The notes: generated by a model not told the origin, from the sequence alone. A stretch of 42,863 bases of DNA from a virus (UHGV-0096616), one strand, 5' to 3'. Shown: positions 6,647 through 35,884, counted from the stretch's first letter. Program-made: numbers and translations.

Positions 6647-6749
6647 GTTAAATCTCCAGATAGTCGCAGCACCCGTTGCGCCGCATATCTGGTTATTCTA
6701 TTACCCAAAAAACCACATATGGATAGAAAGACTGTAAATACGAATAGAT

Positions 6750-6766
6750 ATTACCTTTCGGGTAAT
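6750..6766. promoter_or_regulatory. palindrome ATTACCTTTCGGGTAAT (site 1 of 13), putative operator
   Basis: TTACC-N5-GGTAA dyad; between the tail spike start and the LexA-box gene. Confidence 0.5.
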
Positions 6767-6802
6767 TTGCAAAACGTGCTGGATAGCAAACAAATTATTT
6801 GA

Positions 6803-6822
6803 TACTGTATAAATATACAGTT
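6803..6822 (+). promoter_or_regulatory. LexA (SOS) box TACTGTATAAATATACAGTT
   Basis: CTGT-N8-ACAG with AT-rich spacer, 17/20 match to consensus TACTGTATATATATACAGTA as I recall it, ~20 bp upstream of the 6842 start. Confidence 0.7.
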
Positions 6823-6841
6823 ATTGCATGGAGAAGATAAG

Positions 6842-7099
6842 ATGCAGCAGTATCACTATCCACTGGAAGACGGATTTACCGAAAGGATTCACACGCCGGG
6901 AGGCGTCAGGTCACTGGTGGAGGGATCGCACTTGATGAAATTACTCCGGGATCTCGATAAGGATGGATTTAATGTCGATGGCCCACTTGCCGAACTGACT
7001 GCACTGATTAACTACGTCACCAGCTCACAGATGTCTATGCAGGATCTGCAAACACATCTCGACTATTGTGCCGAACAATTACGAAAACAAACCAGATAA
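6842..7099 (+). CDS. small SOS-controlled protein (85 aa), putative antirepressor; shares a C-terminal domain with the Bro-N protein
   Basis: ATG with GGAG RBS; LexA box upstream; C-terminal ~50 aa align by eye with the C-terminus of the 7415-8110 product. Confidence 0.45.
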   Translation: MQQYHYPLEDGFTERIHTPGGVRSLVEGSHLMKLLRDLDKDGFNVDGPLAELTALINYVTSSQMSMQDLQTHLDYCAEQLRKQTR

Positions 7100-7129
7100 G
7101 GTTTGCAATTACCAAATGGAGTGCTTATA

Positions 7130-7146
7130 TTTACCTTTGCGGTAAA
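7130..7146. promoter_or_regulatory. palindrome TTTACCTTTGCGGTAAA (site 2) overlapping a sigma70-like promoter (-35 TTGCAA 7103-7108, -10 TATATT 7126-7131)
   Basis: Dyad plus 17-bp-spaced promoter hexamers. Confidence 0.5.
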
Positions 7147-7149
7147 TTT

Positions 7150-7257
7150 ACATCGCACTCCTCTTGTGCCATAGTAATCGGGCACTGGCAAAATCCAGTG
7201 CCGGGATTGGCGTCCCGGATTACTAAAAGGCGCATTCACCGCGCAAGCGGTTTTTTT
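7150..7257 (+). ncRNA. candidate small RNA / attenuating leader: two stem-loops plus intrinsic terminator (ACCGC-gcaa-GCGGT then T7)
   Basis: Hairpins at 7181-7202 and 7201-7218, terminator at 7238-7257, no ORF; sits between the promoter/operator and the Bro-N gene. Confidence 0.35.
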
Positions 7258-7414
7258 ATGCGTATAGCACGGCCACATTCGTATTATGGTGGGCTGTGTG
7301 GGGGCACCGAAAGGTGCGCCGGGTCCTTTTAGCCGGTTACGCCAACCCTGCACAGCTCACCACCAACCGATTGGCGTCGGTAGTGGTGATTAACCAGACT
7401 AAAAGGTAACCACT

Positions 7415-8110
7415 ATGACAGCTACAAAAAGCACGTCCATTTTTTCTTTCGAATCCCAAGCCGATATACGAGTAATCGTCATTAATGGTGAGCCATGGTT
7501 TATCGCTTCAGATGTTTGTCGGGCTATAGGCATAGCAAACCATCGAGATGCTGTTCGAAAACTTGATGATGATGAGAAGGGCGTCGCTTCAACCGACACC
7601 CCTGGCGGTGAGCAAGAATCGATCATCATCTCCGAGTCAGGCCTCTACACACTGATCCTCCGCTGCCGCGACGCAGTGACACCAGGCACTATCCCATACC
7701 GCTTTCGTAAATGGGTTACAGGTGAGGTTCTTCCTCAGATCCGCCGCACCGGAAGTTACATTAAAAACTCGCTCCCGCAGGAAGAGCGCATAAAGATGGT
7801 TGCCGACCAGGTAGCCAACGCCACAGCATCAGCAGTGATGCAGGCGATGAAGATAGAGAACAAAACCTACAGTGCCCCACTGAAGCCCGGCTACCGCAGC
7901 CTGATTCATTCGCCGTCTGGTGTTCTCGGCCTGACGGAGAACTCACTGCTGATGAATCTGCTGAACCAGTTACAGGACGACGGGCACGACGTATCGGGCG
8001 CGGCGGCGGAGCTGACCACCATGTTCTGCTACATCGTCGGTGTGAGCAAATGCCTGCGTGATATCCAGACACACGCGGAGTACATCAACGACAAGGCTGG
8101 GTTCTTCTGA
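7415..8110 (+). CDS. Bro-N domain protein (231 aa), putative antirepressor
   Basis: N-terminal Bro-N-like domain; C-terminal domain homologous to the 6842-7099 product; RBS AAGG. Confidence 0.65.
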   Translation: MTATKSTSIFSFESQADIRVIVINGEPWFIASDVCRAIGIANHRDAVRKLDDDEKGVASTDTPGGEQESIIISESGLYTLILRCRDAVTPGTIPYRFRKWVTGEVLPQIRRTGSYIKNSLPQEERIKMVADQVANATASAVMQAMKIENKTYSAPLKPGYRSLIHSPSGVLGLTENSLLMNLLNQLQDDGHDVSGAAAELTTMFCYIVGVSKCLRDIQTHAEYINDKAGFF

Positions 8111-8180
8111 CGGCGGCGGCACAGGGACGTGCCTTTAAATAATTCTGTACAGATTGCAGACTGGGGGTGAATAGCGTACT

Positions 8181-8197
8181 ATTACCTTAAAGGTAAA
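8181..8197. promoter_or_regulatory. palindrome ATTACCTTAAAGGTAAA (site 3) just downstream of promoter (-35 TTGCAG 8154-8159, -10 TACTAT 8177-8182)
   Basis: Dyad overlapping -10/+1 and adjacent to the AAGGAGG RBS of the 8209 ORF. Confidence 0.5.
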
Positions 8198-8208
8198 GGA
8201 GGCGCGAT

Positions 8209-8376
8209 ATGACAGCGTTGAAAAATCGTACTCAGCACAATGAACAAGCCAAGCAATGCTGGGATGTCATTGGAAAAGTTATGCTTGGCCGCGCAAGCAA
8301 AGAGCGCGACAAGGATATGGTTTACCAGACAGGAACATCTTTCAGCGACTTCAAGGCGGCATTTCGCTCCAAATAG
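8209..8376 (+). CDS. small hypothetical protein (55 aa)
   Basis: Strong RBS AAGGAGG 7 nt upstream of ATG; first gene of a two-gene accessory unit. Confidence 0.4.
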   Translation: MTALKNRTQHNEQAKQCWDVIGKVMLGRASKERDKDMVYQTGTSFSDFKAAFRSK

Positions 8377-8396
8377 AAGCACATTAGGAGTTTGTC

Positions 8397-8837
8397 TTGA
8401 AGTTTAACATTAGAATATCTAATAGTTTTCTAAATGGGGAAAGCAACACCCATTTCGCTGTAGACGGACCTTTCCTTACTGACGATGAAATAAAAATCAT
8501 ACAAAGGTTTTTAGAAGATGTTGCCAATGGAAGGGCGCTTGTTGGAAAAAACAAGCCATCGTGGGTTGATGATAACCATGATAAAATTCCCGGCTCAGAC
8601 AATTATGAGCAAGAGAATTATTGGCATTATCATTGTGGGCCAACATGGTATCCAAACACATTTAAGAATTATACCATTAACTTAAATTTCAACCCTGGCG
8701 GAATGCATTCTAATGAATGCATTCATTATGCAAAAAATGATAATGAAATTGTCGTTGTTGGATTTTCAAGAGAACACATACCTTTCCTTTCATCAGATGG
8801 AAACGACAATCCGCTTTTTTATGATGAAGAAGAATAG
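8397..8837 (+). CDS. AT-rich accessory (moron) protein, 146 aa, acidic C-terminus, unknown function
   Basis: TTG start with AGGAG RBS; visibly much lower GC than neighbours; followed by intrinsic terminator; no family recognised. Confidence 0.5.
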   Translation: MKFNIRISNSFLNGESNTHFAVDGPFLTDDEIKIIQRFLEDVANGRALVGKNKPSWVDDNHDKIPGSDNYEQENYWHYHCGPTWYPNTFKNYTINLNFNPGGMHSNECIHYAKNDNEIVVVGFSREHIPFLSSDGNDNPLFYDEEE

Positions 8838-9422: not shown

Positions 9423-11897
9423 TTATTGCGGAGTGACATCCTGAGGTCGCCACCAGTATGTCTGATTAAACTCTTTCTTCGAACGTTGCTCCATTTTACG
9501 CAAATAGCCTGGTGAAAAATACTCCTGCATCTGGTTAAAGATCATATGATCGAGAGCCGCCTTTAAGTACCAGAGATTCGCACCTGGCATCAAACCTTTC
9601 CCCAGCTTCACCAGATCACCACCAGTCTGCTCACTCTTCCCTTCCACAGCATTTAACGGTATGCCCTGAGCAATCTTCACTACGTCATCAACCAGACCAG
9701 CTACCGGGCCAAGCATCGACGCCAGCGCGCCGCTTCCGTACCTAGTGTGATCTGACAATAAAAAGTCACCGTAAAGGCCAAGACCACCACCTTTCAGTAG
9801 AGCACCAAGCCAAAATTTAGCAGCATCTTCTCCTGTCATCTCGCGAGGATTACGACCAGACGCAAGGTCGTTAAGTTGCTGCGACAAAGCGCCAAGAATG
9901 GTCGTACTGGCAATAAACGTCGCAATATATGCCGCACGCCCACCAGCAGACGGCATACCCATAGCGCGTGACCAGTGACGCATAACCACCGAGATAGGGA
10001 ACGATTTAAACAGGAAAACACTTCTCGTTAATTCACCTTTCCATGTTCCACGCTGAATACCAGAACCGGTTATCAGTTGCTCACGTGCTCCCGGTGTAAT
10101 AACAGCCATATCAACTTCTTCAGTTACGGCACCGAGCAGTTTACGCATTGCCTCAAATTTCACGCGTTCAGGCTCACCAAGATGTTTAACTGCTGAATCA
10201 GGGATACGCATAATGCTTTCCGGTGTCAGCATCGTATTATTACCGTTCCCCCAGTCCTCCTGTTGCGCCAGCTTCCATACGCTCCAGTCTGTGTCAGTAA
10301 TCCCTTTACTTTTCAGGATACGAAAATCAGAGTCATCGAGGCTACGAAGGTCTGGTGTCCGTGACACTACTTCTCCCAGGCTTCCCATCATGGTTACGCC
10401 ATAGGCGCGCTTGTGCGCATCTGACCATGCTGTAAGCCCACTGGCACGCATTACCGCCGTTGCCGCCCAACGAGACACAGACGGCCCCATATTATCCATC
10501 GCCCAGCGGTTAACGCTGCCAAGTAGAGATTCCATCGCCAGGCCAGCGCGGCGCGCCCGCGCAAGCTCAGTACGGTTCGTTGGGTCCATAGCTTCAAGCT
10601 GGTTGCGAAATAACTGGTTCATTGGAAGGTTGGTAACCTTCGCAGACAGATACATGGTTCCAAGATCAGAGAACGATGACAGCAACGCGGATCCGAGTCT
10701 GCTGGCAACCAGCCAGTTGCGGATATTGTCAGACCATCGCGCGATGTGCGGATTCGCTACAGGCTGTGTTTTTCCGGAAATAAAGTTGTACAAGTTCTCT
10801 GTTTTGTTCGCCAGACGCTCGACGCTACCGGTTTTACTCGGGTTAGCTGTTGCCGTTTCTGCCTTAACCTGATCAAGAAGGGAGCGGAAAACATGTTCGG
10901 GGTTTGGACCATATGTTTCCACCAGAGCAATATCTTTACTGATACCTTCCAGGTGACCGACCATGATTTCCCATAGAGAGCGATCACCATAAAGTTGTTG
11001 ATATTGGAGATAGGAATCTGCATCTTTGAAATGTATCTGTCGTGATGCATTACCACGGTTAGCACGTGCGCCGGAAATTCGCATTCCGGTATCAGTAAGC
11101 TTATTCAGCCCACCAGTAGCGATCGTGTTATAAGCCTCTCCAAGAAATTCAGACAACTCGGCATCGTTCATCAGTTGTCCATCGGCTCGGGTATAATATT
11201 TGCGATCCAGCTTACCTATAACATCGCTAACCCACTTATCCTTTGATACCGCCCCAACCTTTTCCATAGAATGATGTTGAGGGATCCCCCAGTTTTCGAG
11301 ATAGCCAATGTCACCACCAGCATCATTAAACCGGCGGCGCAGTAGCTCTGTCACTTCTCTCCACGCCTTAGCACCTTTTCTTGCTTTAGCATTGCCAGTA
11401 TTTTGCCCTCGCATTTCATATACCAGATCACGCACGCCCGCTTCATCTTCAAACAGGCCAAAAAAGCGAGGATCAACTGCTTCAAATGCCTCCTGCAATT
11501 GACTCAATGCATAATCACGGGTGGCTTTTGTTCTGGATTCAACAGAGAGGAAATTAGATTTACCGTCTGCATTAAAAGCTATAGTACGGTTAAGAGCGCC
11601 AAGTTTCCCATCAGCCCCTTGATAGCTATTGATAAATTTATCCAATCTCTGACGCGCGGCTATAGTGAGAGCCACACGACGTTTCTTTAATGCCGCTTCT
11701 CGCTGTAATTCTTCAGATGCCAATTGTGCTGCTCGATATAGCCGCTCTGATTCGGAAAGTTGTCGCCACGACATCGGGTCATCACGAGCAATGGAGCGCA
11801 TATTTCGATAAATGCGGTCTTCAATGTTCTGTATTTCTCGCGCCGTTAACGTGCGCTGCGCCGCCTGCTGGACCGCTTGTATACATTCCTGTCTCAT
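9423..11897 (-). CDS. internal virion / ejection (core) protein, 824 aa
   Basis: Large ORF at the end of the structural operon in the position of podovirus internal core proteins; no catalytic motif recognised. Confidence 0.55.
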   Translation of the reverse strand: MRQECIQAVQQAAQRTLTAREIQNIEDRIYRNMRSIARDDPMSWRQLSESERLYRAAQLASEELQREAALKKRRVALTIAARQRLDKFINSYQGADGKLGALNRTIAFNADGKSNFLSVESRTKATRDYALSQLQEAFEAVDPRFFGLFEDEAGVRDLVYEMRGQNTGNAKARKGAKAWREVTELLRRRFNDAGGDIGYLENWGIPQHHSMEKVGAVSKDKWVSDVIGKLDRKYYTRADGQLMNDAELSEFLGEAYNTIATGGLNKLTDTGMRISGARANRGNASRQIHFKDADSYLQYQQLYGDRSLWEIMVGHLEGISKDIALVETYGPNPEHVFRSLLDQVKAETATANPSKTGSVERLANKTENLYNFISGKTQPVANPHIARWSDNIRNWLVASRLGSALLSSFSDLGTMYLSAKVTNLPMNQLFRNQLEAMDPTNRTELARARRAGLAMESLLGSVNRWAMDNMGPSVSRWAATAVMRASGLTAWSDAHKRAYGVTMMGSLGEVVSRTPDLRSLDDSDFRILKSKGITDTDWSVWKLAQQEDWGNGNNTMLTPESIMRIPDSAVKHLGEPERVKFEAMRKLLGAVTEEVDMAVITPGAREQLITGSGIQRGTWKGELTRSVFLFKSFPISVVMRHWSRAMGMPSAGGRAAYIATFIASTTILGALSQQLNDLASGRNPREMTGEDAAKFWLGALLKGGGLGLYGDFLLSDHTRYGSGALASMLGPVAGLVDDVVKIAQGIPLNAVEGKSEQTGGDLVKLGKGLMPGANLWYLKAALDHMIFNQMQEYFSPGYLRKMEQRSKKEFNQTYWWRPQDVTPQ

Positions 11898-25822: not shown

Positions 25823-25899
25823 GTGGCATTAGCTCAGTTGGACAGACCAACCGCCTTCTAAGCGGTTGGTCGCAGGTTCGAATCCTGCATGCCACGCCA
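25823..25899 (+). tRNA. tRNA-Arg (anticodon UCU)
   Basis: Cloverleaf read by hand: acceptor stem GTGGCAT/ATGCCAC, T-arm GCAGG-TTCGAAT-CCTGC, anticodon loop CTTCTAA, 3-prime GCCA; one D-stem mismatch. Confidence 0.85.
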
Positions 25900-35299: not shown

Positions 35300-35884
35300 A
35301 TGAAAAGTATCCAGGACGTCCGCAGGCAAAATCTCAACGACTTGATCGACCGTGAATTCAATGGTGTTCAGACGCGGATGGCTGAAAAACTTGGAACTCA
35401 GGCAAATCTGGTAAACCGCTGGGCTCTTGGTAAGAAGGTTATCGGCGATCAGGTTGCGCGAAAAATTGAAGCTGCCGCCAATAAACCCCGTAACTGGCTT
35501 GATATCGATCGCTCGCTTTCTCAGGAAGGTTTTCAGCCTGTCGGCCCAAGCGACATTGGCCAGCTGGCGGCTCACAACCTGGAACGCTGGATGAGCGAAA
35601 GCCGCGACCTTTCAACACAGGGAAAACTTCACCGCGCATCCGGCGTAGCCCAGGTGACAATCAGCCGCCTGTTAAACAATGAGGTCAGCGTTTCCATTTC
35701 CACCCTGGAGAATGTTGCATCCGCATTCGGGCGTCACGGCTATGAATTACTGATTCACCCGCACGACCCTGCGACCATCAACTATGATCGCTCGCGCTAC
35801 GCATTGTTACCCGAAACCGAGAAAGCAAAGATCGAAAGTTACATTGAATTTGTCATCAACCAGAACGAAAAAAACAAACAATAA
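35300..35884 (+). CDS. CI-like prophage repressor with two HTH domains and no S24 peptidase domain (194 aa)
   Basis: Two XRE-type HTH segments; divergent from cro-like operon; followed by a terminator. Confidence 0.6.
   Translation: MKSIQDVRRQNLNDLIDREFNGVQTRMAEKLGTQANLVNRWALGKKVIGDQVARKIEAAANKPRNWLDIDRSLSQEGFQPVGPSDIGQLAAHNLERWMSESRDLSTQGKLHRASGVAQVTISRLLNNEVSVSISTLENVASAFGRHGYELLIHPHDPATINYDRSRYALLPETEKAKIESYIEFVINQNEKNKQ

Follow-up and report, generated by a model that had tools for sequence, protein, structure and literature searches.

Genomic context of the locus

The region analyzed here (positions 7100 to 7414) is part of a 42.9 kb window, i.e., the whole stretch of DNA under study, which represents a phiV10/epsilon15-like temperate podovirus of E. 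coli in the genus Uetakevirus. By DNA comparison, positions 6650-8400 of the window are 95-98% identical to phiV10, TL-2011b and vB_EcoP_ZX5. A scan of the whole window with Rfam at gathering thresholds yielded three matches, namely a tRNA, isrK and C4 antisense RNA; the coordinates of these and the other features discussed below are collected in Table 1.

Table 1. Features in and around the RNA region, and the single tRNA gene of the window.
Feature	Position	Strand	Description
Tail fiber gene	ends 6646	-	
85-aa ORF	6842-7099		between tail fiber gene and RNA region
Upstream promoter candidate	7103-7131	+	-35 TTGCAA 7103-7108, 17-bp spacer, -10 TATATT 7126-7131; consensus scan
Operator palindrome	7131-7145		TTACCTTTGCGGTAA, motif TTACC-N5-GGTAA, between the two promoters
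Proximal isrK promoter	7147-7175	+	-35 TTTACA 7147-7152, 17-bp spacer, TG-extended -10 CATAGT 7170-7175; consensus scan
IsrK-family small RNA	7182-7257	+	hairpin 1 (7182-7201), hairpin 2 (7202-7217), linker, terminator (7238-7251, with U7 at 7251-7257)
a1 box	7207-7213	+	UUGGCGU, loop of IsrK hairpin 2; complementary to a'
b1 box	7223-7230	+	CUAAAAGG, IsrK linker; complementary to b' loop
Outer clamp helix	7230-7263	+	GCGCAU 7230-7235 with AUGCGU 7258-7263; encloses terminator and U-tract, in read-through RNA only
C4-family antisense RNA	7282-7367	+	86 nt, 17-bp outer stem enclosing two hairpins and a single-stranded segment
b' box	7325-7332	+	CCUUUUAG, loop of C4 hairpin 2; exact complement of b1 and b2
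a' box	7339-7345	+	ACGCCAA, single-stranded segment 3' of C4 hairpin 2; exact complement of a1 and a2
a2 target box	7371-7377	+	UUGGCGU, antirepressor leader
b2 target box	7399-7406	+	CUAAAAGG, overlaps Bro-N Shine-Dalgarno AAGG 7403-7406
Bro-N antirepressor gene	7415-8110	+	231 aa, Pfam Bro-N E = 2.3e-21
tRNA-Arg gene	25823-25899		anticodon TCT

The gene downstream of the RNA region, which the initial annotation of this DNA had assigned to the Bro-N family, is confirmed as such by its Pfam match, and its product also matches the PHROG 'anti-repressor Ant' (E = 2e-62). Over this stretch the window shares 98.4% DNA identity with phage ZX5, where overexpression of the ORF4 anti-repressor lowered lysogeny about 1000-fold (PMC9782041); by analogy with such homologues, the antirepressor would be expected to affect lysogeny in this phage as well.

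Upstream of the RNA region, the product of the 85-aa ORF shares 42% identity (E = 2e-15) with residues 150-223 (the C-terminal domain) of the Bro-N antirepressor, and phrog_450 is matched both by this ORF and by the antirepressor encoded 300 nt downstream. The ORF is preceded by a near-consensus LexA box, CTGTATAAATATACAG (6805-6820), whose distance to the ORF is the same in phiV10 and Tyrion. A scan of the window found no plus-strand terminator between the 85-aa ORF and the isrK promoters, and an SOS-controlled, stand-alone paralogue of the antirepressor domain may feed transcription into the RNA-controlled operon. On the other side of the Bro-N gene, a further copy of the operator (8182-8196) precedes a 55-aa ORF (8209-8376, phrog_8607) and a 146-aa ORF (8397-8837, phrog_5954), both of which match PHROGs of unknown function and gave no match in Pfam or NCBIfam. 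An NCBIfam search placed none of the ORFs adjoining the RNA region in a family, and returned sub-threshold matches only for the candidate repressor discussed below.

Two predicted promoters flank an operator

Both the upstream promoter (TTGCAA/TATATT) and the operator site had been proposed previously and were recovered here, the former by a consensus scan and the latter as a palindrome. The operator touches the upstream promoter at its -10 element, and 1 nt separates it from the -35 element of a second, proximal promoter. The start predicted for the proximal promoter (approximately 7182) coincides with position 1 of the isrK model, and its placement relative to this position is that of the single TTGACG/TATATT promoter in Stx-phage homologues. 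In five Uetakevirus-type loci the position of the upstream promoter is kept and the operator lies 48-51 nt upstream of the isrK start, with conserved half-sites and a variable center of 5 nt. Of the short transcript of ~110 nt that had been predicted from the upstream promoter, the notion of a terminated short RNA holds, but a length of ~76 nt, counted from the proximal start, is likelier than ~110 nt; the upstream promoter is nevertheless conserved too.

The motif TTACC-N5-GGTAA occurs at 16 sites in the window, compared with 0.64 expected, including those at 6751, 7131, 8182, 29005/29023, 32837/32899, 35182/35230 and 35942/36004. A protein with two HTH motifs encoded at 35300-35881, flanked by four of these sites, is the likely repressor candidate. 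The dispersed sites resemble the scattered C1 operators of P1, a global repressor with many operators being a trait of both phages, and the upstream promoter, with its -10 abutting the operator, is the analogue of P1 P2c4/P51a, which is overlapped by operator Oc4.

An IsrK-family RNA ends at an intrinsic terminator

The segment downstream of the proximal promoter matches the Rfam isrK model (RF01394) over its full length (model positions 1-77) with 77.9 bits against a gathering threshold of 50. The family is further characterized by expression as a stable RNA of about 77 nt that associates with Hfq. The two GC-rich stem-loops described in the initial annotation are present within 1-2 bases of the places given there, in agreement with the fold prediction; their arms are GGCACTGG (7181-7188) with CCAGTGCC (7195-7202) and CCGGGA (7201-7206) with TCCCGG (7213-7218). 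A terminator scan likewise recovered the intrinsic terminator that had been described (ACCGC-GCAA-GCGGT followed by T7, 7238-7257). The IsrK fold has a predicted energy of -28 kcal/mol (z = -2.4), with agreement between the minimum-energy and centroid structures. Hairpin 1 shows compensatory changes among 32 relatives, and the stem of hairpin 2 is nearly invariant while its loop, which holds the a1 box, varies. The hairpins are conserved, with compensatory substitutions, in related prophages, where a lack of conservation had been named as grounds for giving up the initial reading. In a permissive scan, the Rfam c4-a1b1 motif (RF03163) was matched at 7169-7221 with 45.1 bits, just below its threshold of 46.7.

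The terminator hairpin forms in the minimum-energy and centroid folds of transcripts of 76 nt, 120 nt and 249 nt, and in none of these transcripts was an antiterminator helix predicted to compete with it. A classical leader attenuator, in which terminator and antiterminator are mutually exclusive, was rejected on these grounds, and the suggestion that the segment is a transcription attenuator is not supported. The terminator is nevertheless a constant part of the locus, since a T-run terminator was found no more than 75 nt upstream of C4 in all 59 loci compared.

In read-through RNA, the terminator and its U-tract would be enclosed by an outer clamp helix, which is absent from the Rfam isrK model. 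This helix occurs in the minimum-energy fold of most relatives, with sequences that differ yet still pair. When folds with cognate and non-cognate 3' flanks were compared, the cognate flank was the more stabilizing (-6.1 versus -4.35 kcal/mol) and performed better in 38 of 42 loci, which amounts to modest support; RNAalifold did not recover the helix from a MAFFT alignment of IsrK and its 3' flank, in which the alignment register was shifted. The clamp may represent a processing or insulating element.

The antirepressor leader contains a C4 antisense RNA

The sequence between the terminator and the Bro-N start codon had been described as a GC-rich leader of ~160 nt. It measures 157 nt and contains, in addition to target sites, a C4 antisense RNA that matches Rfam RF01695 over its full length (model positions 1-87) with 79.2 bits against a gathering threshold of 45. 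Its fold is predicted at -48.1 kcal/mol (z = -5.9); judged by their z-scores, the structures of IsrK and C4 both exceed chance, and both RNAs also reach the Rfam gathering thresholds. Across 24 relatives, compensatory double changes were seen at ten pairs of C4 and no pair of the outer stem is disrupted, although the ends of this stem were fixed by the pattern used to scan IMG/VR, so that the invariance of those columns carries no information. The idea of a self-contained, terminated small RNA or attenuator followed by an unstructured leader is very improbable given these results: its hairpins and terminator are real, but it takes no account of the 86-nt C4 structure or of the exact three-way complementarity described below.

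A promoter scan found no separate C4 promoter between 7257 and 7282, which fits processing of C4 from a read-through transcript. A lone TATTAT within 7258-7286 was considered as a C4 promoter and rejected, because it has no -35 element and its start would fall inside the C4 stem. In P1, C4 has been shown to be cut from a longer read-through precursor, and release by RNase P counts among the traits that define RNAs of the P1/P7 c4 type; by analogy with its homologues the C4 RNA of this phage would presumably be processed as well.

Contrary to the description of the segment as free of ORFs, three mechanical ORFs cross the region, at 7066-7332 (plus strand), 7063-7353 (minus strand) and 7286-7393 (plus strand). 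The last of these, with 35 aa, is the equivalent of 'orf45' of the Gifsy-1 locus; it starts at the conserved AUGGUGGG inside C4 and ends 21 nt before the Bro-N ATG. It was rejected as a conserved coding frame, as its length ranges from 3 to >200 codons among 44 relatives and it often ends inside C4. Apart from this non-conserved frame, no ORF was found between C4 and the Bro-N start. The explanation that the region encodes small proteins is the least probable of those considered here: such ORFs exist, and 'hypothetical proteins' are annotated over C4 in VT2-Sakai and other records, but the length of the reading frames is not conserved, the substitutions are compensatory for RNA stems and both segments match covariance models.

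Two recognition boxes occur in three copies

The a1 and a2 boxes are identical copies of each other, as are b1 and b2, and the C4 RNA carries their exact complements, of 7 nt for the a boxes and 8 nt for the b boxes. The pattern UUGGCGU-N(5-35)-CUAAAAGG occurs at three places in the 42.9 kb, i.e., in IsrK, in the leader and, as the complement, in C4, with zero occurrences expected. These positions and complementarities, like the family membership of both RNAs, were obtained directly from the analysis, and the nomenclature of the boxes was checked against the curated P1 annotation of the a and b sites. The b2 box overlaps the Shine-Dalgarno sequence AAGG, 9 nt before the Bro-N ATG; in relatives, the end of b2 is typically found 7-16 nt before the start codon.

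Cofolding of C4 with the leader or with IsrK (RNAcofold/duplexfold) gave either artefactual long duplexes or no intermolecular pairs, since loop-loop contacts resemble pseudoknots; the assignment of the boxes rests on exact complementarity and covariation.

Two further pairings were observed around the target boxes. The leader segment 7380-7414 is predicted to form a hairpin, UAGUGGU/ACCACUA, that places b2 and the Shine-Dalgarno sequence in its loop and ends at the AUG, and the 3' strand of the closing stem of C4, UCACCAC (7357-7363), has its complement in the spacer GUGGUGA (7383-7389). The latter pairing would make a different fold available to the unprocessed transcript. Pairings of this type can also be recognized by eye in Tyrion and VT2-Sakai.

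The boxes covary across related loci

Fourteen diverse phage loci were retrieved, including those of Enterobacter phage Tyrion, two Klebsiella phages, VT2-Sakai, other Stx phages, phiP27, an Actinobacillus phage and APSE-3. The order isrK, C4 and antirepressor-type gene was found in 14 of 14, and in each of these loci isrK lies upstream of the C4-like RNA and the antirepressor gene and is transcribed towards both. More loci were obtained by a pattern scan of IMG/VR, where about half of the pattern matches were chance hits in unrelated GC-rich DNA and were filtered out. Phage records and IMG/VR together provided 59 unique related loci, representing 16 variants of a', 36 loops of b' and 44 combinations of the two.

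Cognate and non-cognate pairs were compared in these 44 classes with the same longest-match procedure and a cut-off of at least 7 nt. Matches between a' and a2 reached this cut-off in 100% of cognate pairs compared to 12.8% of non-cognate pairs, and those between a' and a1 in 93% compared to 12.2%. For the b boxes, the cut-off was reached between b' and b2 in 75% of cognate versus 4.8% of non-cognate pairs and between b' and b1 in 55% versus 4.5%, b1 being weaker than b2. Since the match rates of cognate pairs far exceed those of non-cognate pairs, the three copies of each box change together; this three-way covariation, itself a direct observation, is what binding of C4 to both the leader and IsrK would be expected to produce.

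A repeated arrangement was seen in IMGVR_UViG_2671181028_000005, which carries three tandem isrK-C4-gene modules spaced 656 nt apart on the minus strand (9700-11270). The proteins encoded downstream in these modules (~120 aa) are near-identical, and the specificities of the a and b boxes differ.

Comparison with known systems

The immI region of P1/P7 (Op51/Oc4, P51a/b, a1-b1, c4, a2-b2, icd-ant) shows the same order of parts, on one strand. In the curated annotation of P1, two promoters lie in tandem, the first of them carrying a C1 operator, and are followed by a1, b1, c4, a2 and b2 at the RBS. In P1 as in the phage studied here, the loop of the second hairpin upstream holds a1, b1 follows closely, and next come a hairpin with a U-run and the same C4 fold. 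In both, the partner of the b sites is the loop of C4 hairpin 2, and that of the a sites is the single-stranded segment on the 3' side of this hairpin. The region upstream of P1 c4, including its hairpin and U-run, is a weak match to the isrK model (35.1 bits, versus 77.9 bits here). The relation to P1 c4 is one of homology, and not only of likeness in role as had been suggested. The initial annotation was right to propose a terminated small RNA and an RNA control related to P1 c4, but not in its assignment of roles: the two hairpins correspond to IsrK with a1 and b1, and the homologue of c4 is the downstream RNA at 7282-7367.

Several differences from P1 were also found. P1 represses through translational coupling to icd and through Rho. 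There, b2 is located at the icd RBS and the icd ORF separates c4 from ant, whereas here no icd is present and b2 lies directly on the Shine-Dalgarno sequence of the antirepressor, so that this locus is not an immI operon in the strict sense, with an icd-type ORF as the target and Rho polarity on ant. The antirepressor is a Bro-N protein rather than Ant1/2, the boxes are UUGGCGU/CUAAAAGG rather than UUGACAG/GUUAGUG, and the host phage is a podovirus rather than a P1-like myovirus.

A second comparison that had been drawn, to P22 sar, is a poor one. Both systems use small RNAs that limit antirepressor synthesis, and both are located in the secondary-immunity region of a podovirus. However, P22 sar is a cis-antisense RNA, made from the strand opposite to ant and running across the ant RBS, while the regulator here is located upstream on the same strand, would pair through two short boxes and shows no homology to sar. 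A promoter scan found no minus-strand promoter-like site between 7300 and 7600, i.e., around the Bro-N start at 7415; with all parts on the plus strand, a cis-antisense RNA of the sar type was rejected.

The APSE isrK-C4-Bro-N locus (Rouil et al. 2020, PMC7313666; LR794150 annotation) has an architecture identical to the one described here, with a Bro-N gene likewise in the regulated position, and isrK, C4 and the Bro-N gene are annotated in the same order in the APSE-3 record. Its a' and b' boxes match the region upstream of its Bro-N gene, which by sequence is the arrangement seen here. The APSE boxes, UUCGCAU/CUAAACAGG, differ from those of the present phage, as do the phage and host lineages.

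In the Gifsy-1 isrK-orf45(STnc1160)-anrP locus of Salmonella (Hershko-Shalev et al. 2016, PMC4825925), an IsrK-family RNA made up of two hairpins and a terminator, a C4-like read-through RNA and an antirepressor are found as well. The downstream RNA STnc1160 depends on the isrK promoter, and IsrK supplied in trans activates translation of the anrP antirepressor >100-fold (PMC4825925). IsrK with G28A or G31A is inactive in trans, and support for IsrK pairing with the downstream RNA comes from the compensatory mutants G28A/C162U and G31A/C159U (PMC4825925). Counted from a start at 7182, G28 and G31 correspond to G7209 and G7212 in a1, and C162 and C159 to C7343 and C7340 in a', which pair in that register; this mapping is by numbering only. 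The two loci also differ, in that the 'orf45' frame is shorter here (35 aa) than in Gifsy-1 and is not conserved in the family, no neighbors corresponding to isrJ and antQ were seen, and the repressor operator, the tandem promoters and the putatively LexA-controlled paralogue upstream are features of the present locus.

The model published for the Gifsy-1 locus is one of mRNA remodeling, in which the IsrK segment in cis pairs with the C4 region in an inactive read-through transcript and IsrK in trans displaces it, opening the RBS of 'orf45', whose translation is coupled to that of the antirepressor (PMC4825925). The homology of the two loci speaks for such a mechanism here, as does the corresponding ORF that starts at the same conserved AUGGUGGG. 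However, the variable length of this frame among relatives, in which it often ends within C4, and a conserved complementarity that targets the Bro-N Shine-Dalgarno sequence itself, suggesting direct occlusion, make it unlikely as the main explanation. Remodeling and the switch proposed below, in which IsrK competes for C4, are not mutually exclusive.

Control of termination, as exerted by the CI RNA of P4, would be a different use of the same parts. In this case C4 would pair with a1/b1 and/or a2/b2 on nascent RNA and promote termination at the IsrK terminator, or further downstream via Rho. The P4 CI RNA acts on termination via seqA/seqC, the Gifsy-1 authors raised the same possibility, and IsrK in trans also raised a transcriptional fusion 8-fold in Gifsy-1 (PMC4825925); moreover, the terminator is universally kept between a1/b1 and C4. 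We nevertheless regard this explanation as rather improbable, and somewhat more so than remodeling, as no fold that competes with the terminator was predicted, with or without a 5' extension of IsrK, the overlap between b2 and the Shine-Dalgarno sequence is conserved, and the translational effect in Gifsy-1 is far above the transcriptional one.

Proposed antirepressor switch

From the sequence evidence, the two hairpins and terminator very probably represent IsrK, with C4 in what had been called the leader, and together form a known type of antirepressor RNA switch. We further consider it probable that the region provides RNA-based control of a secondary-immunity (antirepressor) operon, in which C4 acts as repressor and IsrK as its competitor and which is gated by the terminator and the operator. 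In this switch, transcription would start at one or both of the promoters flanking the repressor operator, and most transcripts would end at the intrinsic terminator, yielding the ~76-nt IsrK RNA, while read-through transcripts would carry C4. The exposed a' and b' boxes of C4 would bind the leader at a2 and b2; with the ribosome-binding site lying under b2, translation of the Bro-N antirepressor would then be prevented and the prophage would stay repressed. Since IsrK carries exact copies of both boxes, its a1 and b1 would compete for C4, and when IsrK is abundant relative to C4 the leader would be freed and antirepressor made. RNA processing, the translational block and the competition are all proposed by analogy with homologous systems.

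The role of IsrK as a competitor for C4 is the less certain part of this proposal, and by analogy we lean towards it. One observation speaks against a pure decoy, namely that mutation of a1 in cis raised basal expression in Gifsy-1, which a decoy does not predict and which points to an additional, intramolecular role. The two promoters may also matter in this respect. For the transcript from the upstream promoter (7138-7257), the predicted fold (-51.6 kcal/mol, z = -5.2) pairs GGAUUACUA (7217-7225) with AUAGUAAUC of the 5' extension (7171-7179), where the proximal promoter has its -10 region. This pairing would partly cover b1, and the two promoters could therefore give IsrK forms that differ in decoy activity.

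Annotation and implications for prophage immunity

In the GenBank record of phiV10 the element is unannotated, with only a 'terminator' marked, and it is also unannotated in the RefSeq E. coli genomes, even though 835 of the 5,426 complete E. coli genomes contain similar DNA, as do about 300 phage records, many of them of Stx-converting phages. A literature search turned up no publication in which C4 or IsrK is connected with phiV10, epsilon15 or Uetakevirus, and the ZX5 study tested the repressor and antirepressor proteins, with the RNA layer unnoticed (PMC9782041). The locus is typical of two curated RNA families, with an architecture already described for P1/P7, Gifsy-1 and APSE, and reveals no new kind of system; the practical value of the finding is one of annotation. 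Beyond this, the three-way covariation across the family supports functional a1 and b1 copies, which are listed as 'putative' in the P1 annotation, and offers a way to reconcile the P1 model, in which C4 represses, with the Gifsy-1 model, in which IsrK activates.

A broader and tentative interpretation, which we hold to be possible but somewhat doubtful, is that IsrK serves as a dedicated, sequence-matched decoy within a three-part code (a1b1/a'b'/a2b2), that the independently assorting boxes, with their 44 classes, define heteroimmunity groups, and that the ratio of terminated to read-through transcripts at the IsrK terminator is the decision variable of the switch. If this were true, the switch would be combined in this phage with a repressor operator and, immediately upstream, an SOS-controlled paralogue of the antirepressor C-terminal domain, and specificity classes would decide which co-resident prophages cross-silence or cross-induce each other's antirepressors.
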